Of a stretch of 64,000 nt of DNA, positions 5,786-64,000 are shown one piece after another. The notes below the pieces were generated by a model. That model had not been told where the DNA came from, did no database searches, and saw only the letters and a program-made list of their open reading frames with translations. Numbering within the stretch: the stretch's first letter is position 1; each line of letters starts with the position of its first letter. This stretch comes from an uncultured bacterium (GTDB lineage Bacteria > Patescibacteriota > Minisyncoccia > UBA6257 > 2-01-FULL-56-20), in contig CAVOJZ010000002.1 in NCBI GenBank assembly GCA_963696395.1, forward strand, positions 363,989 to 427,988, in the 5' to 3' direction. The position numbers and the translations under genes were made by a program.

Positions 5786-7119
5786 ACTCAATGAACAGGC
5801 TCAAAGTATTTTTGTTTTTTGTCGGCGACGTGATCGCACTTTACGCCTCACTTTTTATTACCCTTTACATCCGTTACGGCAACTCGTTCTACGAACAATT
5901 CCTGGACAGCCACTTCGGCCCATTCAGTATTATTTTTGCTTTTTGGATTGCGCTCTTTTATATCGCCGGATTATACGACCTCCGTCGGCTTCGGAACAAC
6001 CTGAATTTTCTGAAAACGCTATCCTTGTCCCTTGTGATCAATGCCATCATTGCAGCGCTGCTTTTTTATTCCATCCCCGCGTTCGGCATCGCGCCAAAGA
6101 CCAATTTATTGATTTTTATCGCTATCTTCGCCGTCGTAGAAATTTTTTGGCGGCGGACCGCAAACCGCTTTATGACCTTCGGCGATGCACCTAATAAAGT
6201 GCTCATGGTCGGCAGTGGCGCCGTGGCACAGGAACTCAAGGCAACCATCCGCGAAAACTCCCAGCTTGGATATGAAATCAAAACCGAGCTGACCGACGAG
6301 CAGGCTTATGCCGCACCGGATTCCATCCGGACGATTGCCGAAAAGAACGGCATCAATCTTATCGTCGTACCCCATCAACTGAAGCGCGACGCACGGCTCG
6401 TGACGATTCTCTACGAACTCTTCGGTAGCGGAATTCTCATAACCGACCTCGTCGCATTCTACGAACTGGTGATGCGGAAAATTCCGCTCGCCCAGCTTGA
6501 AGAGGCATGGTTTCTCGAAAACATTGCTGCCGAAGTGCGCTTTTACGACCAGCTGAAGCGCGCGTCGGAATTTCTTGCAGCGCTCGCAATCGGCATCATC
6601 CTGCTTCCGTTTGAACTCCTGATTGCGATCATCATAAAACTCACATCCCGCGGACCGGTCATCTATAAACAAGTGCGCGTCGGCGAGAAAGAACGCGAAT
6701 TCACGCTCTATAAATTCAGGACGATGCGCGTGAACGCGGAGAAGGACGGAGCGGTCTGGGCCGGCGAGCGCGATCCGCGCGCAACGGCTTTCGGCCAGAT
6801 TCTGCGCATCTCGCACCTCGATGAATTGCCTCAACTTTGGAATATCGTGAAAGGCGACATCTCGTTTGTCGGCCCCCGGCCCGAACGGCCGGAGTTTGTG
6901 AAAAAACTCGAATCCGAAATCCCCTATTATGAAGTCCGCCTGCTCATTAAACCGGGTGTCACCGGATGGGCGCAGATCAATTACCATAAAGACACCGCAA
7001 CGGAAGACGTCATGCAAAAATTGCAATACGATATTTATTATCTAAAAAACCGCTCGATCATTTTGGATCTGGCGATTGTGCTGAAGACGCTGAGGTCGCT
7101 TTTTATCAACCCGGACTAG
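5782..7119 (+). CDS. polyprenyl-phosphate sugar phosphotransferase (bacterial sugar transferase, WbaP/CpsE-like initiating enzyme)
   Basis: N-terminal TM helices. The C-terminal domain reads KLTSRGPVIYKQVRVGEKEREFTLYKFRTM...DELPQLWNIVKGDISFVGPRPERPEF, the Bac_transf signature. Confidence 0.8.
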   Translation: MNSMNRLKVFLFFVGDVIALYASLFITLYIRYGNSFYEQFLDSHFGPFSIIFAFWIALFYIAGLYDLRRLRNNLNFLKTLSLSLVINAIIAALLFYSIPAFGIAPKTNLLIFIAIFAVVEIFWRRTANRFMTFGDAPNKVLMVGSGAVAQELKATIRENSQLGYEIKTELTDEQAYAAPDSIRTIAEKNGINLIVVPHQLKRDARLVTILYELFGSGILITDLVAFYELVMRKIPLAQLEEAWFLENIAAEVRFYDQLKRASEFLAALAIGIILLPFELLIAIIIKLTSRGPVIYKQVRVGEKEREFTLYKFRTMRVNAEKDGAVWAGERDPRATAFGQILRISHLDELPQLWNIVKGDISFVGPRPERPEFVKKLESEIPYYEVRLLIKPGVTGWAQINYHKDTATEDVMQKLQYDIYYLKNRSIILDLAIVLKTLRSLFINPD

Positions 7120-10061: not shown

Positions 10062-11543
10062 ATGCTTAATCGCCTGAAGTCTTTTCTTTTCAAGAACGAT
10101 ACGTCAAAGCAGACCGTTGCAAAAAATACAATCTGGTTGACCATCTCAAATTTTGGTGGACGCCTCATCAAAGCGGGCGTCATTGTCTATGGCGCGCGGG
10201 TTCTCGGTACCTCCAATTGGGGTGTTTTTTCGTATGCCATAACGCTCGCCGGCTTCCTCACGCTTTTTATGGATCCGGGGCTCAACAATATCATCATGCG
10301 TGAAATCGGAAAGGCCGACGACGAAAAGCGACGCACTATTTTCTCCACCACTTTCGCCATGAAAATGGTCTTGCTGGTCGCGGGCGTCTGCGTTGTCATT
10401 TTCATCGCCCCGTTTTTCTCAACGCTTCCCGGCGCAAAAGCGCTTTTGCCGATCGTTGCCATAATCCTTGGCCTCGATACAGTGCGCGAATTTCTCACGT
10501 CGTATGCACGCGGCATGGAGCGCATGGAATTTGACGCGGCAATATTCCTCCTTACCAATTTCGGCATCCTTGTCTTCGGGTTTATCTTCCTCGCCATGGC
10601 GCGGACTCCGTCCGCTCTTGCCTGGGCTTATGTCGGCGGTGATATTCTCGGCATCGCCCTCGCCGTTTTCATCGTCAGCACGTTCTTTAAGAGAATGCGG
10701 GAATATTTTTCGGCATCACTCATCGTGCCGATCCTTCAATCCGCATGGCCTTTTGCCGTGACGAGCGCGCTCGCTCTTCTTCTCACCAACACCGATATCC
10801 TGATCATCAGCTGGATAAAAACCGCCTCGGATGTCGGCATCTATGCATCCGCAATCCGTGTCTTGCAGGTGCTCTATCTCATCCCAACCGTTTTCCAATT
10901 CAGCACCCTGCCGCTCTTTGCGCGGTTCGCAAATAAAGACAATGTAAAGTTCCGCGCGGCGCTGGAGCAGACCGTCGGCCTCATATTCCTCGCTTCAATC
11001 CCCCTCGCCGTCGGCGGCGTGATCGTGGGCACAAGCCTCATGAGCTTCATTTTCGGCGCCGCCTATGCGGCAGGCGGAACATCGTTCAAGATACTCGCCA
11101 TCGGCCTCATGTTCGATTTCCCGGCGGTCGTGATAAGTTCCGCAATATTTGCCTACGACAAACAGCGCAGCCTCATTATCGCTTCCGCGATCGCCGGAGC
11201 GATGAACGTGGTGTTCGACATTATCCTTATTCCCCACTGGGGCATCAATGGATCGTCCGCGGCGACGCTCCTCGCTCAAATTGCCAGCAACTGGTATCTC
11301 TGGCACATGATGAAAAAAATAAATTACTTTGAAGTGTTGCCTTCGCTCAAAAAAATCATCGCCGCGAGCGTTGTCATGGGCGTGGCAACCTTCGCACTCG
11401 CCTATCTCCACGTTAATGTTGCTCTCACCATCATAGCCGGTGCGATCGTATACTTTGCCATGCTGCGATTGCTCCGCGAACCCTTGCTCATTGAAATCAA
11501 GCGCGTGATTACGCGAGCTGAAAGAGCCGAGGTGGTGGCATAG
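10062..11543 (+). CDS. wzx: Wzx-type polysaccharide/O-antigen flippase (MOP superfamily), copy 1
   Basis: 493 aa, about 12-14 TM segments, with the typical Wzx architecture and size. It is a paralog of 24144-25607. Confidence 0.65.
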   Translation: MLNRLKSFLFKNDTSKQTVAKNTIWLTISNFGGRLIKAGVIVYGARVLGTSNWGVFSYAITLAGFLTLFMDPGLNNIIMREIGKADDEKRRTIFSTTFAMKMVLLVAGVCVVIFIAPFFSTLPGAKALLPIVAIILGLDTVREFLTSYARGMERMEFDAAIFLLTNFGILVFGFIFLAMARTPSALAWAYVGGDILGIALAVFIVSTFFKRMREYFSASLIVPILQSAWPFAVTSALALLLTNTDILIISWIKTASDVGIYASAIRVLQVLYLIPTVFQFSTLPLFARFANKDNVKFRAALEQTVGLIFLASIPLAVGGVIVGTSLMSFIFGAAYAAGGTSFKILAIGLMFDFPAVVISSAIFAYDKQRSLIIASAIAGAMNVVFDIILIPHWGINGSSAATLLAQIASNWYLWHMMKKINYFEVLPSLKKIIAASVVMGVATFALAYLHVNVALTIIAGAIVYFAMLRLLREPLLIEIKRVITRAERAEVVA

Positions 11544-15275: not shown

Positions 15276-16193
15276 TTATTGAAGATATATCTTCGGATCA
15301 ATATCCGCGGCGGCTGCATTCGCTTCCAGCTGGACGATATTTTTGGAACCAACGATGACACTCGTAATGGTTGGGTTCGCAAGGCACCAGCCAAGCGCCC
15401 ACTGCGCCATATCCATTCCCGGCGGAACTTCCGTGCGCTTTATTTCCTCAACCCGCCGCAGACGCTCGTCGTTGAATCCCGGAGCCGCACCGGCACGGAT
15501 GTCCCCCGCCGCAAATGTCGTCCCCGGAGCATAGCGACCGCTCAGAAACCCCCTCGATAGCGGAATACGTGCCAACACGCCGAAGCCGTGTGCTTCGCAG
15601 AAAGGAAGAACAACGCTTTCTGCCTCACGGCTAAGACGATTATACACCACCTGCATCACATCCGCTTTTATTGCGGCTGCGGCTTCAAGCTGATGAATGT
15701 CGCCTTTCACGGTAAGGTCTCCCGAAAGCGAAATGCCGAGATGGCGGATTTTTCCGAGTGTGACCTGCCGGGCAAGCATCTCCCACAATGCATCGTTATC
15801 GAAAACCGCATTCGGTCCTGAATGGAATTGATAGATGTCGACATACTCGGTGCCGAGCGCGCGAAGCGATGCCTCGAGCTGCTGCTCAACGTCGCGGGCA
15901 CTCCATGCGTCGTCTTTTTTGAACGACTCGTGCGAAACGTGGCCGAACTTGGTGGCAATGATCCATTTGTCGCGCCTGCCTCGCGTTGCCTGGCCGATCA
16001 TCGATTCCACGCCATGGTCGCCATAGCATTCGGCCGTATCGATCACGTTTATGCCAAGTTCGCCTGCACGATGGACAATGCGTTCGACGTCGCGCGGCGA
16101 ATATGCAACGCCCCACTCACCGGAAAATTGGTGTGTGCCGAGCGCGATGACCGATGCCTCTATGCCGGTCGTGCCGAGCCGTCGGTATTTCAT
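15276..16193 (-). CDS. aldo/keto reductase
   Basis: MKYRRLGTTGIEASVIALGT...INVIDTAECYGDH is the AKR N-terminal signature. Its start overlaps the upstream stop at 16193. Confidence 0.75.
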   Translation of the reverse strand: MKYRRLGTTGIEASVIALGTHQFSGEWGVAYSPRDVERIVHRAGELGINVIDTAECYGDHGVESMIGQATRGRRDKWIIATKFGHVSHESFKKDDAWSARDVEQQLEASLRALGTEYVDIYQFHSGPNAVFDNDALWEMLARQVTLGKIRHLGISLSGDLTVKGDIHQLEAAAAIKADVMQVVYNRLSREAESVVLPFCEAHGFGVLARIPLSRGFLSGRYAPGTTFAAGDIRAGAAPGFNDERLRRVEEIKRTEVPPGMDMAQWALGWCLANPTITSVIVGSKNIVQLEANAAAADIDPKIYLQ

Positions 16194-24143: not shown

Positions 24144-25607
24144 ATGCTTTCGAGGATAAAAAGCTTCCTGTTCCGGAACAGCTCCACCAAGCAAACGGTC
24201 GCCAAAAACACCGTCTGGCTCACCATTTCCAACTTTGGCGGCCGCCTCATAAAAGCCGTCGTCATCATCTATGCCGCCCGCGTGATGGGCGCGGCCGACT
24301 ATGGAGTTTTCTCGTACGCGCTAACGCTTGCCGGGTTTTTCACGCTCCTAATTGATCCGGGGCTGAATGCGGTCATCATGCGCGATGCATCAAAAAGCGA
24401 CGACGAGCGCCGCATTGAAATATTTTCGACGACGGCATTCATCAAATTAGTACTCCTCGTCGTCGGCGTTTTCTTTGTTGTCTTTGTCGCGCCATTCTTC
24501 AGCACGTTGCCGGGAGCCCAAATCCTTCTTCCAATCGTCGCCTTCATTATCGTCTTCGACAATCTGCGCGATTACCTTTTCTGTTTTATCCGCATCCGCG
24601 AAAAGATGGAACTCGAAGCCGGTATCTACCTCGCGATGAATATCGCGATCGTCATCCTGGGATTCATAGCACTCCACGTCCACCCGACACCCCTCAACTT
24701 CGGCCTATCGTACGTTGCCGGCTTATCGCTCGGTTTCCTCGCGGCGCTGTGGACCGCACGCGGATATTTGCCGACCATCTTTTCAAAATTTAAAAAGAGC
24801 ATCATCCGCCCGCTTCTTGAGTCGGCGTGGCCGTTTGCCGTAACGGGCGCGCTGGGTATCCTCCTTACGAATACCGACATCCTCATCATCAGCTGGATGC
24901 GCACGGCGATTGACGTCGGCATCTATTCCGCCGGCATCCGCATCGTCCAGGTGTTCTACCTCATCCCGACCGTGGTGCAATACGCAACACTCCCCTTACT
25001 CGCACGACTTGCGAATAAAGATAATGGAAAATTCAGGACGGTATTTGAGCGGACCATCGGCACCATGTTCCTTCTTTCGATACCGCTCGCGATAGGCGGT
25101 GTCGTGGTGGGCACGCAGGTGATGAGCGCCGTCTTCGGGAGTTCGTATGCAAGCGGCGGTTTGGCTTTCAAGATACTCATGCTTACCATGCTCGTTGATT
25201 TTCCCGCGACCGTCATCGCAAATGCTGTTTTCATCTACAATCGCCAAAAAAGCCTGATCGTCACTTCGGCAATTGCAGGTGTCATGAATATCGTTTTTGA
25301 CCTTATATTGATCCCCCCGTTCGGCATGGCCGGCTCAGCAATTGCAACGCTTATCGCGCAGGGCGCGAGCAACTGGTATCTGTGGAGCACGCTGAAAAAG
25401 ATAAACTACTTTGAGGTTTTGCCGCGCCTCGGCAAGGCTGCGGCCGCCGGCGTTATCATGGGTCTTGCGACGGCGCTGCTCGTAGCTACCGGGCTCAATA
25501 TATTTGTAACCATCCTTATCGGCGCCCTTGTGTATGCGCTCCTCTTATATTTCTTACGCGAACCGTTGTTTTTGGAAATTGGCAAAATAGCGCTCGTCAC
25601 AGAATAA
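24144..25607 (+). CDS. wzx: Wzx-type polysaccharide flippase, copy 2
   Basis: 487 aa. Colinear and clearly homologous with copy 1, with a large fraction of identical positions by eye (for example MLSRIKSFLFRNSSTKQTVAKNTVWLTISNFGGRLIK). Confidence 0.65.
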   Translation: MLSRIKSFLFRNSSTKQTVAKNTVWLTISNFGGRLIKAVVIIYAARVMGAADYGVFSYALTLAGFFTLLIDPGLNAVIMRDASKSDDERRIEIFSTTAFIKLVLLVVGVFFVVFVAPFFSTLPGAQILLPIVAFIIVFDNLRDYLFCFIRIREKMELEAGIYLAMNIAIVILGFIALHVHPTPLNFGLSYVAGLSLGFLAALWTARGYLPTIFSKFKKSIIRPLLESAWPFAVTGALGILLTNTDILIISWMRTAIDVGIYSAGIRIVQVFYLIPTVVQYATLPLLARLANKDNGKFRTVFERTIGTMFLLSIPLAIGGVVVGTQVMSAVFGSSYASGGLAFKILMLTMLVDFPATVIANAVFIYNRQKSLIVTSAIAGVMNIVFDLILIPPFGMAGSAIATLIAQGASNWYLWSTLKKINYFEVLPRLGKAAAAGVIMGLATALLVATGLNIFVTILIGALVYALLLYFLREPLFLEIGKIALVTE

Positions 25608-40938: not shown

Positions 40939-42474
40939 ATGGCAAAGAAAACAGCGATCCTTATCGTGCTCGACGGCTGGGGCATCGGGGCGAACAACGA
41001 ATCGAACCCTATCTATATCGTTAAGCCGCCGATCTTTGACTGGCTCGCGCAGAACTATCCGGTAACCAGCGTCCAGGCTTCGGGTATCGCCGTAGGCCTC
41101 CCATGGGGTGAAGTCGGCAATAGTGAAGTGGGTCACTTAACGATCGGCGCCGGAAAGGTGCTCTACCAATATTATCCGAAAATCACGATGGCGATCCGCG
41201 ACGGCAGTTTCGCACAAAACAAAGTTTTGAACGACGCGTTCGACCACGTGGTCAAAAATAACAGCGCCATCAATTTCGCCGGCCTTCTCACGAAGGCGAA
41301 TGTTCATGCGTCAATCGAGCATCTTGGAACGCTCATCAAACTTGCCGAGGAGCACGGGATCAAAAACATCAACCTTCATTTGTTTGCCGACGGAAAGGAC
41401 AGCCCCCCGCGTTCGCTCGAAAGTTTTTTGAAGGAAATTCCGAAACAATATCTCGCCTCGCTCGTCGGCCGCTACTACGGGATGGACCGCAACGGCAACT
41501 GGCGCCTCACGGAAACCTCCTACCAATTAATGCTCGGCAAACTCGGTCCCGTCGTGACCGACCCGACGCCGCTCATCGAAGCAACCTACAAGCAGGGCTC
41601 GACGGAAGAATATTTAACGCCGATGCGATTTTCCGAAGATAAAAAATTGCAGGACGGCGACGCGCTTATCTTCTTTAATTACCGGGAAGACAGCATCCGG
41701 CAGATCGCGGCATCGTTCATTGTGAAACCGTTCGACAAATTCCCGACGGTCCCCTTCGCCAATTTATATCTCGCGACCATGACGCACTACGATGATTCGT
41801 TCCAGGTGCCGATCATCTGCGAAGCTGACACCGTCACCGTTCCTCTCGGAAAAGTTCTGAGCGATAAAGGGTTCGCCCAGCTTCGCATCGCCGAAACCTA
41901 TAAGTACGCCCACGTCACCTATTTCTTTAACGGTCTCCGAGAACCGCCTTTCCCGGGCGAATACCGCACGCTCATCCCCTCAAACTCCAATCTTCATCCG
42001 GAAGAGCATCCGGAAATGATGGCAAGCGCGATTACCGACCGCCTCATCGAAGCCATCAACAGCAAGGGGTTCCAGTTCATCCTCGTTAATTATGCGAATG
42101 CCGACGCCATCGCGCACACGTCGGACTACAACGCAGCGCTCGAAGCGGTCCGGGTGATCGACCGTGAAATCACGCGCGTCCTTAAAGTCGCCGAAGACCC
42201 CGATATTCTGCTCATGATCACAAGCGACCACGGCAACATCGAAGAGATGATCGACATCATGACCGGCCTGCCCGAGAGCCAGCACGACGCGAGCCCGGTG
42301 CCGCTCTATATTGTGGCGGAGGAATTTAAGGGAAAGAAGTTCGTGAATGCCGATACGCGGGCCGAAGAAAGCCTTGGCTCGCTTGCAGACATCACGCCAA
42401 CCCTACTCGCCATTATGGGAATCGAGAAGCCGCCGGAAATGACCGGCGAGAGCATGCTTGGAGGATTGATTTGA
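40939..42474 (+). CDS. gpmI: 2,3-bisphosphoglycerate-independent phosphoglycerate mutase
   Basis: MAKKTAILIVLDGWGIG...NSEVGHLTIGAG is the iPGM signature. Confidence 0.9.
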   Translation: MAKKTAILIVLDGWGIGANNESNPIYIVKPPIFDWLAQNYPVTSVQASGIAVGLPWGEVGNSEVGHLTIGAGKVLYQYYPKITMAIRDGSFAQNKVLNDAFDHVVKNNSAINFAGLLTKANVHASIEHLGTLIKLAEEHGIKNINLHLFADGKDSPPRSLESFLKEIPKQYLASLVGRYYGMDRNGNWRLTETSYQLMLGKLGPVVTDPTPLIEATYKQGSTEEYLTPMRFSEDKKLQDGDALIFFNYREDSIRQIAASFIVKPFDKFPTVPFANLYLATMTHYDDSFQVPIICEADTVTVPLGKVLSDKGFAQLRIAETYKYAHVTYFFNGLREPPFPGEYRTLIPSNSNLHPEEHPEMMASAITDRLIEAINSKGFQFILVNYANADAIAHTSDYNAALEAVRVIDREITRVLKVAEDPDILLMITSDHGNIEEMIDIMTGLPESQHDASPVPLYIVAEEFKGKKFVNADTRAEESLGSLADITPTLLAIMGIEKPPEMTGESMLGGLI

Positions 42475-42500
42475 AACGACTTAGGAAAAGATTAGTGTAT

Positions 42501-42690
42501 ACGCGGGACTTTGCTTGCGCGCGGACTTGTGCCGCAAACGGAAGCGAGAGGGAATGCATGAGCGAATAGAAAAAATGCGGGGTGCCCCCGCGCTTGTCGC
42601 GGATGGGCCGCATTTTTTCGTTACGAGCGAGCTGCATTTCCGGAGCTGGAGTTACTAGGCACAAGTCCGCGCGCAAGCAAAGTCCCGCGT
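42501..42690. repeat. 33-bp perfect inverted repeat pair (42501-42533 / 42658-42690) enclosing a 124-nt core that contains an A6-hairpin-T6 bidirectional-terminator-like stem-loop
   Basis: acgcgggactttgcttgcgcgcggacttgtgcc is exactly reverse-complemented at 42658-42690. The inner aaaaaatgcgg / ccgcatttttt arms sit at 42571-42581 and 42608-42618. The element fills the gpmI/holin-like intergenic space. Confidence 0.6.
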
Positions 42691-42692
42691 GG

Positions 42693-42698
42693 TATAAT
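42693..42698 (+). promoter_or_regulatory. -10 hexamer TATAAT 6 nt upstream of the ATG at 42705 (leaderless-type promoter candidate)
   Basis: ggTATAATcaatccATG, immediately after the right arm of the inverted repeat. Confidence 0.3.
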
Positions 42699-42704
42699 CA
42701 ATCC

Positions 42705-43073
42705 ATGCACTGGCTCATAAAAGCACTCATCGTCATCCTGGGCAACGCCCTCGCGCTGTGGCTCGCGTATCTTTGGGTGCCGGGATTTGTTTTGACCGCG
42801 AATTTTTTACAGCTCTTCGTGATTGGTATTATCCTTGCCGTCCTCAACTTTTTACTCAAACCACTCCTTGCGCTCGTTCTCGGTCCTATCATCCTTCTCA
42901 CGCTCGGACTCGGCATCATTATCGTGAACGCAATCATCCTTTATCTGCTTCCGATTCTCGCGGATCATCTTGACTTCCTACGTGGAAGCATTACCATTCA
43001 GAGCATTCCGGCGCTCTTCCTCGCAACCATAATCGTAAGCGTCGTCAATTTCTTAATTCATCTCATTGCATAG
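42705..43073 (+). CDS. small 4-TM membrane protein (DUF360 / phage-holin-family-4-like)
   Basis: 122 aa from the internal ATG: MHWLIKALIVILGNALALWLAYLWVPGF..., with four hydrophobic helices. Confidence 0.35.
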   Translation: MHWLIKALIVILGNALALWLAYLWVPGFVLTANFLQLFVIGIILAVLNFLLKPLLALVLGPIILLTLGLGIIIVNAIILYLLPILADHLDFLRGSITIQSIPALFLATIIVSVVNFLIHLIA

Positions 43074-43074
43074 C

Positions 43075-43287
43075 ATGCTCACCATCATCCAAATCGCTAT
43101 CGCTATCGTCATCATCGTCCTCATCCTCCTCCAGGAACGCTCCTCCGGCATGTCCGGCCTTTTTGGCGGGGACAGCGGCGGGCTGTACCAGACACGCCGG
43201 GGCATGGAGAAAACAATGTTCTATCTCACGATCATTATGTGTATCGCCTTTGTCGGCATTGCGGTGTTTCAGCTGTACCGCCCGTAA
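43075..43287 (+). CDS. secG: preprotein translocase subunit SecG
   Basis: 70 aa: MLTIIQIAIAIVIIVLILLQ...GMSGLFGGDSGG...RRGMEK plus a second TM helix, the typical SecG layout. Confidence 0.6.
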   Translation: MLTIIQIAIAIVIIVLILLQERSSGMSGLFGGDSGGLYQTRRGMEKTMFYLTIIMCIAFVGIAVFQLYRP

Positions 43288-47246: not shown

Positions 47247-47255
47247 CTCGCAGTC

Positions 47256-47397
47256 AAACCTCCCGAATCGTATTCTCGGGGTCGGCGTCGCTCCGTTCTC
47301 GGAGCGCGCCTAACTCTCGGCGCGAGCCAGCTTCCTTACCAATGGTTGCTCTTGCTCGCACCTCCGAGATACCCCTCAAATGCGATTCGGGAGGTTT
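47256..47397. repeat. 15-bp perfect inverted repeat (47256-47270 / 47383-47397) enclosing nested hairpins in the rnj 3' region
   Basis: aaacctcccgaatcg is exactly reverse-complemented at 47383-47397. Inner pairs are ctcggag/ctccgag and gagcgcgcc/ggcgcgagc. Confidence 0.5.
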
Positions 47398-47408
47398 TCC
47401 TTGCTCGT

Positions 47409-47417
47409 GATATAATC
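47409..47417 (+). promoter_or_regulatory. extended -10 (TGATATAAT) 5 nt upstream of the trpS ATG (leaderless-type promoter candidate)
   Basis: gTGATATAATcaccttATG. Confidence 0.35.
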
Positions 47418-47422
47418 ACCTT

Positions 47423-63053: not shown

Positions 63054-63485
63054 TTAACGAAGTTCGTATGGCAGATCGCCGACTGGTTCGAAATCTGCCG
63101 GAATGTCAGCGGGCGGTTCAAATGTGTAGGGCTTGGCGCTACTTCCCAGCATGAGCGTTCCCGCCATCCCATAAGCGCGATGAGCGATTCCCGCCGGAAC
63201 AAGAAGGATCCACCCTGCCTTCATGACAAATCGCTCCTTTTCGTCGGCTTCGCGATCCCAAAGATCGAAGGTAACCTCGCCGCGAACAACAAAATACAGT
63301 TCTGCGTAGGCGTGGAAATGACCCTGCTTCCCGAGAAAATCATTTTGGTGCAGCTCGAGAAGTTTTATTTGCTCCGCCGTGTAGCCGTTCAGATCGGGAT
63401 CTCCATTGCAGATACCGAACAGGGTTCGCTGCGGGCGCTTGTTGGTTAAATTTGGATCAGATTCACGACAGACAACTCCGCGCAT
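63054..63485 (-). CDS. cupin-domain protein
   Basis: HAYAELYFVVRGEVTF...LLVPAGIAHRA is a two-motif cupin signature. Confidence 0.55.
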   Translation of the reverse strand: MRGVVCRESDPNLTNKRPQRTLFGICNGDPDLNGYTAEQIKLLELHQNDFLGKQGHFHAYAELYFVVRGEVTFDLWDREADEKERFVMKAGWILLVPAGIAHRAYGMAGTLMLGSSAKPYTFEPPADIPADFEPVGDLPYELR

Positions 63486-63643
63486 TGATTTAACCTCCTA
63501 TTGCCAAAGTTCTAAATGCTCACAAAGTATAGCGAAATTAATCAATTCTGTCAAATATGTGGACGCGAATTCAATCTTGAAATGCAACATCTCCGCGGGT
63601 GAGAATATCGGTACGTCGAATACCAAAAACCCACATAACGGAG

Positions 63644-64000
63644 ATGTCGCACTCGCATTTTACGCGCGACGACCGTGTCGCGCTAGCCCACCTGCTCTTG
63701 GTGGGCAAAACACAGTCATGGATCGCGGACCGGCTTGGCAAGAGTCCGGGTACAATCAGTCGGGAGATCAGGAGGAACCGTGATGATGACGGCGTATATC
63801 GCGGCGGCAGCGCCCATCACAAGACACAATACCGAAGGTTTGCTGCCAAAGAACCGTCGCAGAAATTGAAGCATGATCGAACGCTCCGCCGCCATGTCAT
63901 GCGAAAACTCAAGCACTATTGGTCGCCCGAACAGATCGCGGGACGTTTGCAGCGAATGACGAAACACACCGTCGTCTCCCATGAGACGATTTACCAGTTC
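63644..64000 (+). mobile_element. IS30-family transposase, N-terminal part (runs off window end); left end of the IS lies somewhere in 63486-63643
   Basis: Manual translation from the ATG at 63644 (GGAG Shine-Dalgarno upstream): MSHSHFTRDDRVALAHLLLVGKTQSWIADRLGKSPGTISREIRRNRDD...YWSPEQIAGRLQRM...SHETIYQF. This matches the IS30 transposase N-terminal HTH regions (cf. LTLSEREEI..., SPSTISREVQRNRG..., KWSPEQISG..., ETIYK). There is no stop in the window, so it is absent from the ORF track. Confidence 0.75.

Follow-up and report, generated by a model that had tools for sequence, protein, structure and literature searches.

Between gpmI and the holin-like gene that follows it in this 64,000-nt stretch of contig CAVOJZ010000002.1 (the whole of which we call ‘the window’) lies an element of 190 bp, positions 42501–42690, closed at either end by one arm of a 33-nt perfect inverted repeat. 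Our preferred reading, which we hold with a confidence just on the positive side of even, joins three propositions: that positions 42475–42692 represent a lineage-specific insertion of ~218 bp into an almost gapless gpmI/holin-like junction; that the body of the insertion (42501–42690) is a single-copy foldback segment, resembling a miniature inverted-repeat transposable element (MITE) and carrying a bidirectional terminator at its centre; and that it now acts as terminator and insulator between its two neighbours. As to origin, a single insertion of foreign or mobile palindromic DNA, now immobile or of very low copy number, appears most likely.

Working from the ends of the element inwards, we see that the left arm (ACGCGGGACTTTGCTTGCGCGCGGACTTGTGCC, 42501–42533) and the right arm (42658–42690), both located by repeat search and belonging to neither strand, are complementary at 33/33 positions (100%) and lie 124 nt apart, exactly as the original prediction had described them. 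That prediction spoke of the intervening 124 nt as a core; the spacing stands, but the core is not unrelated sequence. The left interior (42534–42568) is an imperfect complement of the right interior (42620–42657), neither being assigned a strand and both being delimited by alignment of one half against the other and by the minimum-free-energy structure, and the interior taken as a whole is itself significantly palindromic (41/70 aligned columns match, a score reached in 0/1000 shuffles). The complete 190 nt is one degenerate quasi-palindrome, perfect only in its outermost 33 bp and in a 12-bp stretch near its centre. Each arm holds two GGACTT sub-repeats placed 17 nt apart, giving four in the element as a whole, symmetrically arranged. 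Nor does the element fill the entire intergenic space, as had been thought: a 26-nt leader (42475–42500, plus strand) runs from the gpmI stop to the left arm.

The RNA fold predicted for positions 42490–42700 (211 nt) is very stable, at -129 kcal/mol for the plus strand and -115 kcal/mol for the minus strand (z ~ -12 on both; 0/200 shuffles equally stable). Among the intergenic regions folded in the window the gpmI–holin spacer is the most over-structured, with a z of -18; the next (47247–47422) reaches -11, and the remaining folded spacers -6.1 or weaker. Only two G-U pairs occur in the plus-strand fold and one in that of the minus strand; with no bias between strands, the palindromy is best understood as a property of the DNA, and an RNA structure specific to one strand was rejected on the same count. 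Open reading frames (ORFs) of 29–87 amino acids within the element are without a Pfam match, and the 87-amino-acid antisense ORF that spans it has no homologue among 5.8 billion proteins, in a search aimed at spurious ORFs on other copies.

At the centre of the element we find a second, shorter inverted repeat of 12 nt (GAAAAAATGCGG / CCGCATTTTTTC, at 42569–42580 and 42608–42619), nested within the first, which would form a bidirectional intrinsic-terminator hairpin (A6-TGCGG … CCGCA-T6; 42569–42619, both strands) beginning ~95 nt past the gpmI stop. The repeat itself, a terminator scan that called terminator-like sites on both strands at this point, and isolated folds of -27.2 (plus) and -28.0 kcal/mol (minus), with a U6 tract on either strand, all agree on this feature; the nested hairpin of the original prediction is thus borne out. 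The central 51 nt, consisting of A6, a GC-rich stem and T6, are those of a textbook bidirectional intrinsic terminator, and the size of their stem is comparable to that of the ordinary terminators elsewhere in the genome, which have stems of 10–11 bp followed by U runs. The 33-bp arms are unlike these, being longer than any normal terminator stem, as had been pointed out; they belong to ~70 outer base pairs (33 of them perfect) that an ordinary terminator lacks, that have no known role in termination, and whose right half would be transcribed only once the terminator has failed. We would therefore place the terminator proper in the ordinary central hairpin, and not in the arms. This placement apart, the fallback originally offered, that of an unusually long intrinsic terminator, comes close to our functional conclusion.

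Metagenome assemblies do sometimes make inverted joins, so that a spurious fold-back could in principle account for such a structure. We regard this as barely credible. The long contig continues on either side of the element, whose core is asymmetric and unique, and both junctions between flank and arm are recovered in Logan contigs of run ERR11563597, assembled independently at k=31 and 100% identical to the window. One of these (L001) breaks off after exactly the first 30 nt of the left arm, and another (L021) opens with exactly the last 30 nt of the right arm; since breaks at k-1 = 30 nt into each arm are what a true 33-nt inverted repeat gives in a de Bruijn graph, we conclude that the two junctions are genuine. 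It may be that this run and the source assembly share their data, a point in favour of an artefact, and the contigs of the run are to be read as confirming the junctions rather than as a second strain.

That the element is an insertion follows from comparison with relatives, whose orthologous loci were retrieved via their gpmI proteins and in which the spacer was measured from the gpmI stop to the start codon of the holin-like gene. Against 230 nt in the window, this spacer is 13 nt in L002/L003 (gpmI 92% identical), 16 nt in L008–L012 (84%) and 42 nt in L014 (82%), all of which carry the box TTTG(A/G)TATCATT immediately upstream of the ATG. The closest two of these groups (L002, L003 and L008–L012) have a gpmI whose TGA stop also furnishes the TG of the extended -10 of the following gene (L002 11582–11600; L008 6407–6428), an unusually tight overlap of a signal for coding with one for transcription; gpmI of L014 has a TAG stop that lies upstream of the box, and stop and promoter are separate there. 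In BLAST alignments, the match between the window and every relative breaks off exactly at 42474 and takes up again at 42705, and the 26-nt leader, compared at the junction with L002, L008, L014 and L004, has no counterpart in relatives. From the short spacers of the relatives and the breaks at 42474 and 42705 we take the compact junction to be ancestral and positions 42475–42692 to be derived.

The same empty sites bear on the possibility that the palindrome was made on the spot and without the help of a mobile element, template switching (quasipalindrome correction) having lengthened a terminator that was already there. Such growth would explain why the whole 190 nt form one degenerate palindrome centred on the terminator, why there is a single copy and why no target-site duplication is seen. 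It would need, however, at least ~110 nt of new DNA to be present beforehand, as relatives have 13–42 nt at the site and nothing like either arm, and therefore offer no template for the copying of an arm; moreover, growth outwards predicts that pairing should be best at the centre, whereas here it is the outermost 33 bp that are perfect. We consider local growth improbable.

Whether the inserted DNA belongs to a family of mobile repeats depends on further copies and on its borders. The host DNA available for searching came to ~66 kb, or ~8% of a genome that is probably near 0.8 Mb (a relative has an 827-kb contig). Within the 64-kb window an arm occurs at its two known places only, with up to 3 mismatches allowed (0/100 dinucleotide shuffles match), and blastn-short likewise returned no second copy of the element; nor was one found in the 2.1 kb beyond the left end of the window, on a flanking Logan contig, or in ~230 kb of Paceibacterota loci from this and related genomes (nhmmer --max). 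On the right, the Logan contig ends inside the window, at the IS30-family element. Turning to public collections, 20–25-mers of the arm had 0 exact matches in IMG/VR and in 185,579 GTDB species genomes; in JGI metagenomes there were six matches to arm 20-mers only, each of them a chance match to one arm, lying in high-GC coding DNA and lacking an inverted partner; and the whole element, searched in distant mode, gave a single 32-nt partial match among plasmids (a Cupriavidus plasmid, E 1e-3, attributable to chance) and no match among phages. A family of high copy number (more than ~40 copies) is thus unlikely; a low-copy family, or a handful of copies in the host, is possible.

The borders of the element read …GTGTAT|ACGCG…CGCGT|GGTATA…, with no direct repeat abutting both ends. 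A GTAT does occur in each flank, the two being out of register by 1 nt; given the freedom of placement, we estimate the chance probability of this at ~5%, and we do not count it as a clean target-site duplication; by contrast, a different insertion at the same slot in the relative L004 has a clear duplication of TTTGA.

We can now weigh the suggestion, made in the original prediction, that the element is a MITE with a terminator as its cargo. A genuine MITE would be one of several dispersed, non-autonomous copies, moved in trans by a transposase specific for the 33-bp ends. Terminal inverted repeats, a size of 190 bp, within the ~50–500 bp usual for MITEs, the lack of coding capacity and a site that is filled here and empty in relatives are all as in a MITE. 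The genome also has at least one DDE transposase, the IS30-family gene at 63643–64000, and the two GGACTT sub-repeats of each arm could be binding sites for such an enzyme; with only ~66 kb searched, up to ~10 copies elsewhere would be unsurprising, and published copy numbers for bacterial MITEs go down to 1 per genome (PMC10969869). On the other side stand the failure to find a second copy in any of the DNA searched, the want of a clean target-site duplication, and ends that do not resemble the end of the only insertion sequence visible in the window. A source contig of 0.2–1 Mb would, if assembled from short reads, also be a poor fit with many identical 190-bp repeats. Of the earlier suggestion, then, the insertion, the inverted repeats and the terminator survive, while copies and duplication have not been forthcoming; we regard membership of a dispersed family as doubtful, though far from negligible, and we do not file the element as a MITE, there being no clean target-site duplication and, in the DNA searched, no second copy.

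The IS30-family gene just mentioned is partial, its N-terminal 119 codons (Pfam HTH_38; NCBIfam transpos_IS30 4.5e-16) running off the end of the window. We place the left end of this element at 63563, where a Logan contig breaks 30 nt into it, as expected of a repeated element, and its putative 26-bp terminal sequence (ACGCGAATTCAATCTTGAAATGCAAC, 63563–63588) lies 7 nt upstream of the -35 box of a divergent cupin gene. An origin of the palindrome from this element was rejected: the arms share with the IS30-like end only the 5-nt tip ACGCG, 14/33 positions agree without gaps, and Smith–Waterman alignment scores no better than shuffles. As to features of REP and REPIN sequences, no Y1_Tnp (RAYT) gene was found among the scanned ORFs of the window, nor other copies of the palindrome there.

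Several of these observations, together with others, weigh against our preferred reading of a single palindromic insertion. Nothing demonstrates mobility, there being neither a second copy within the searched DNA nor a clean target-site duplication. Even the closest relatives available are only ~77% identical in coding DNA, a distance from which the age of the insertion is not datable; and, should it be old, the coexistence of perfect arms with an interior that matches at ~59% would call for something further, for instance selection acting on the stem or gene conversion from arm to arm. Termination and processing, finally, are predictions from sequence.

The disparity between arms (33/33) and interior (~59%) is also what concerted evolution of the arms would give if the element were an invertible or recombining cassette, the arms being recombination sites kept identical by gene conversion during inversion while the 124-nt core drifts. 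In keeping with this idea, another hairpin of the genome (47256–47397) has a conserved core that is inverted with respect to its homologue at the orthologous spacer of L014. The element further resembles the invertons, in which inverted repeats of 10–35 bp bracket 100–700 bp directly upstream of a gene, in that its repeats likewise bracket a segment immediately upstream of one; it differs in the absence of a promoter from the bracketed segment and of a recombinase nearby, and in the symmetry of its cargo. A promoter scan of 42000–43200 placed no site within 42534–42657 on either strand; the only recognisable signal of the core is a symmetric bidirectional terminator, whose inversion would change little; and Pfam scans of most window ORFs (some of which have no Pfam match at all) revealed no tyrosine or serine recombinase and no invertase, the sole gene of a mobile element being the IS30 transposase 21 kb away. 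An invertible cassette thus seems to us decidedly improbable.

The original prediction also thought of a palindrome bound by protein and of a structured RNA. An operator or architectural site, or else a gene for a free-standing structured RNA, would account for the symmetrical arrangement of the four GGACTT motifs and for the extreme stability of the predicted structure. The motif, however, is no commoner in the rest of the window than expected (4 matches against 3.9) and the variants found of the 13-mer sub-repeat all fall in coding DNA; a regulon built on this sub-repeat or on GGACTT-N11-GGACTT was rejected, neither being enriched in other intergenic regions, and nothing points to an operator. 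With regard to RNA, the promoter scan found no promoter preceding the element, the fold has no G-U strand bias, and no Rfam family passes its threshold: the one hit, to the plant miRNA precursor MIR1437, scored 39.6 bits against a gathering score of 168 and was rejected as a generic match to a long stem, no other family being reported for the element at E<=10 and only two tRNAs passing their gathering scores in the whole window. The element is absent from all relatives compared and so is not a conserved structured RNA. Either role is, in our estimation, very improbable.

Setting these alternatives aside, we compared the element with known families of small intergenic repeats. ERIC/IRU and other enterobacterial imperfect palindromes, of ~130–190 bp and located in transcribed intergenic regions, share with it the imperfect palindromy of the whole element and its setting. 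ERIC sequences are present in tens to hundreds of copies (PMC10969869). They have a conserved consensus, while the element found here has no detectable relatives, and its outer arms are perfect. Correia repeat-enclosed elements (CREE) of Neisseria are likewise small elements beside genes with long inverted repeats at their ends, measuring ~100–160 bp with inverted repeats of 26 bp; they occur in many copies per genome and are flanked by a TA duplication. Transcripts of Correia elements, according to PMC2649163, form duplexes that are bound or cut by RNase III and alter the expression of neighbours, and the elements create promoters at their ends. The element of the window differs from these in being present once in the DNA searched, without a TA duplication, and in that the -10 box beside it already existed in relatives, only the T of the TGn extension being its own contribution. 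A third family, SPRITE, consists of small non-coding intergenic insertions with a stable hairpin and a motif like that of a Rho-independent terminator (PMC10969869; PMC3049150), in which respects it is similar; SPRITEs, compared here by description only, are multi-copy in one genome, whereas ours is a singleton in the DNA searched and resides in a host of the Candidate Phyla Radiation (CPR). In form and in probable effect, then, the element resembles the terminator-bearing, MITE-like repeats of the SPRITE, Correia and ERIC type.

The terminator and insulator function that we favour would operate as follows. A polymerase arriving from gpmI would transcribe the left arm and left interior, upon which the central hairpin with its U6 tract (42569–42619) should form, and most gpmI transcripts would be released near 42613–42620, before the right arm is made; gpmI would thereby gain a 3' end of its own with a protective stem-loop. 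The holin-like, secG and SBP genes would be transcribed independently, from the conserved extended -10 TGGTATAAT, as a leaderless mRNA. Any read-through RNA would contain both arms and could close into a rod of ~73 base pairs, 33 of them perfect, which, by analogy with the Correia elements (PMC2649163), might serve as a substrate for an RNase III-type enzyme that cuts leaked transcripts away from the downstream message. The net effect would be to insulate two units that in relatives are necessarily co-transcribed; we infer the termination site, the processing by RNase III, the insulation and the mobile origin alike.

The genes on either side are readily identified. Upstream, and correctly named in the original prediction, is gpmI (40939–42474, plus strand), encoding a 2,3-bisphosphoglycerate-independent phosphoglycerate mutase (Pfam Metalloenzyme 7.5e-63, iPGM_N 9.2e-53), whose named homologues belong to Candidatus Paceibacterota, thus marking the genome as one of the CPR/Patescibacteria; the gene for RNase Y lies upstream on the other strand. 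Downstream, at 42705–43073 on the plus strand, is the gene for a membrane protein of 122 amino acids with four transmembrane segments (Phage_holin_4_2 family, PF04020 9.2e-15), which is followed by secG and then by an SBP_bac_5 gene, an order that is conserved in relatives. The window is compact, most intergenic gaps being under 100 nt.

From the junction alignment we assign to the holin-like gene the extended -10 promoter TGGTATAAT (42690–42698, plus strand), which ends 6 nt before the ATG and corresponds to TGATATCAT or TGGTATCAT in relatives. Its TATAAT (42693–42698) and the ATG at 42705 directly follow the element, as had been observed, and the TGn extension takes its T from the right arm, whose final base is T42690. 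The gene is therefore probably leaderless, or has a very short leader. A candidate promoter within the 26-nt leader of the insertion (TTGAAA-16-TAGTGT) was rejected, since its -10 matches at only 3/6 positions and it was not reported by the promoter scan. In the window, 9 genes begin with the combination of TGnTAnnnT, 4–10 nt and a start codon, namely those at 1235(-), 10000(-), 10062(+), 34091(-), 39227(-), 42705(+), 47423(+), 51981(-) and 55258(+), none of which leaves room for a Shine–Dalgarno leader; this suggests that leaderless or near-leaderless mRNAs may be widespread in this genome. Other gene starts differ, that of the cupin gene at 63485 having a canonical TTGACA/TATACT promoter and an AGGAGG leader.

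A second kind of hairpin, which we call ‘family 2’, is found in this genome and in its relatives. Its members are ~140 nt long and lie at 47256–47397 of the window, at 6153–6297 of L004 and at 16190–16333 of L014 (the same as L027); they share a conserved core, GCCGAGAG..AGGCGCGC..GAGCGACGCCGAyCCCGAGAA, with a TTCGAGGG/CCCGAGAA helix that holds a tandem G-A mismatch, a conserved motif present on one strand only. Their closing stems are entirely different in the three genomes and yet complementary in each, 14/34 predicted pairs being compensatory; the folds have a z of -8 to -10, and Rfam yields no match. Both the window and L014 have the hairpin in the orthologous spacer between the genes for RNase J and TrpRS, directly upstream of an extended -10, its core inverted in the one with respect to the other. 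Among GTDB genomes the 21-mer of the core was found only in L027 (= L014), together with 9 chance matches in unrelated high-GC taxa. The members of ‘family 2’ may represent a small RNA gene not yet described, or else a mobile element of hairpin type.

In its long closing stem, its length (~140–190 nt across the two) and its position between a stop codon and an extended -10, ‘family 2’ is like the element described above, and its member in L004 occupies the very same slot between gpmI and the holin-like gene. It differs in having a conserved core with variable, co-varying arms, and in lacking a central terminator of A-run and T-run. Homology of the two was rejected, local alignment falling within the range of shuffles and nhmmer finding nothing.

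The gpmI–holin slot holds other inserts as well. In L004 (gpmI 89% identical) it is filled by a different insert of 496 nt (5802–6297), flanked by the 5-bp TTTGA duplication, the whole spanning 5797–6302. This insert contains an ORF of 99 amino acids that is a decayed reverse transcriptase, the C-terminal 35 amino acids being 66% identical to P0122 (RVT_1, ‘RNA-directed DNA polymerase’); the 145-nt ‘family 2’ hairpin follows directly after this remnant. A third relative, represented by three contigs from three ENA samples (L005 7537–7737, L006 4189–4389 and L007 1566–1767), has other, unrelated sequence after gpmI; all three contigs end at the same base, 201–202 nt past the gene, and this points to a repeat there or to an insertion that is polymorphic. 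L005 also carries a gene for a PemK toxin inserted upstream of gpmI. The junction may be a preferred target, or it may merely be the only place where insertions are tolerated.

These observations can be drawn together into a bolder proposal, namely that the element, the ‘family 2’ hairpins and the reverse-transcriptase remnant of L004 could all be forms of a single class of hairpin cassette, long-stemmed and hitherto undescribed, that occurs in Paceibacterota. Such cassettes would insert with precision into the gap that separates a stop codon from the extended -10 of a leaderless gene, possibly through a link to retroelements or a dependence on hairpins, and in genomes as compact as these would act as modular terminators or insulators, their arms held complementary by selection or gene conversion while the sequences turn over completely between species. 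We consider this unlikely.

Further features of these genomes concern the surroundings of the hairpins rather than the hairpins themselves. Upstream of ‘family 2’ in L014 is another long, GC-rich inverted repeat (GTTCCGGGGACGCGTC … GAGACGCCCCGGAAC; L014 16064–16190, L027 5640–5720), and as this one spacer holds both, stacked hairpins evidently occur in the larger spacers of the clade. In the relative with the 827-kb contig (L013, 1–11542) the gpmI–rny block is inverted with respect to the holin–secG–SBP block, and its RNase J is called as two fragments (54 and 145 amino acids) although the DNA aligns at 85% to the intact gene of the window; a frameshift or assembly errors are possible. Positions 1–39000 of the window are mostly taken up by a large cluster for surface-polysaccharide biosynthesis, with many epimerases and glycosyltransferases, a polymerase of the Wzy type and two paralogous Polysacc_synt flippases (10062–11543 and 24144–25607; ~70% DNA identity).

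Considered alone, the element adds one singleton to a known kind, that of palindromic intergenic insertions with a terminator, and as a singleton with no demonstrated activity it will come as little surprise to the specialist. A search of the full-text literature for MITEs in CPR bacteria returned nothing. The more promising threads lie in the reuse of the same slot by unrelated insertions and in the co-varying ‘family 2’ hairpin. Should our preferred reading be correct, the junction would provide a clean natural case of a compact CPR genome rewiring its transcription, in which one palindromic insertion splits an obligatorily co-transcribed pair into two insulated units; it would also bring to light hairpin-type insertions, an IS30 element and retroelement debris in Paceibacterota, a group whose mobile-element content is little described.

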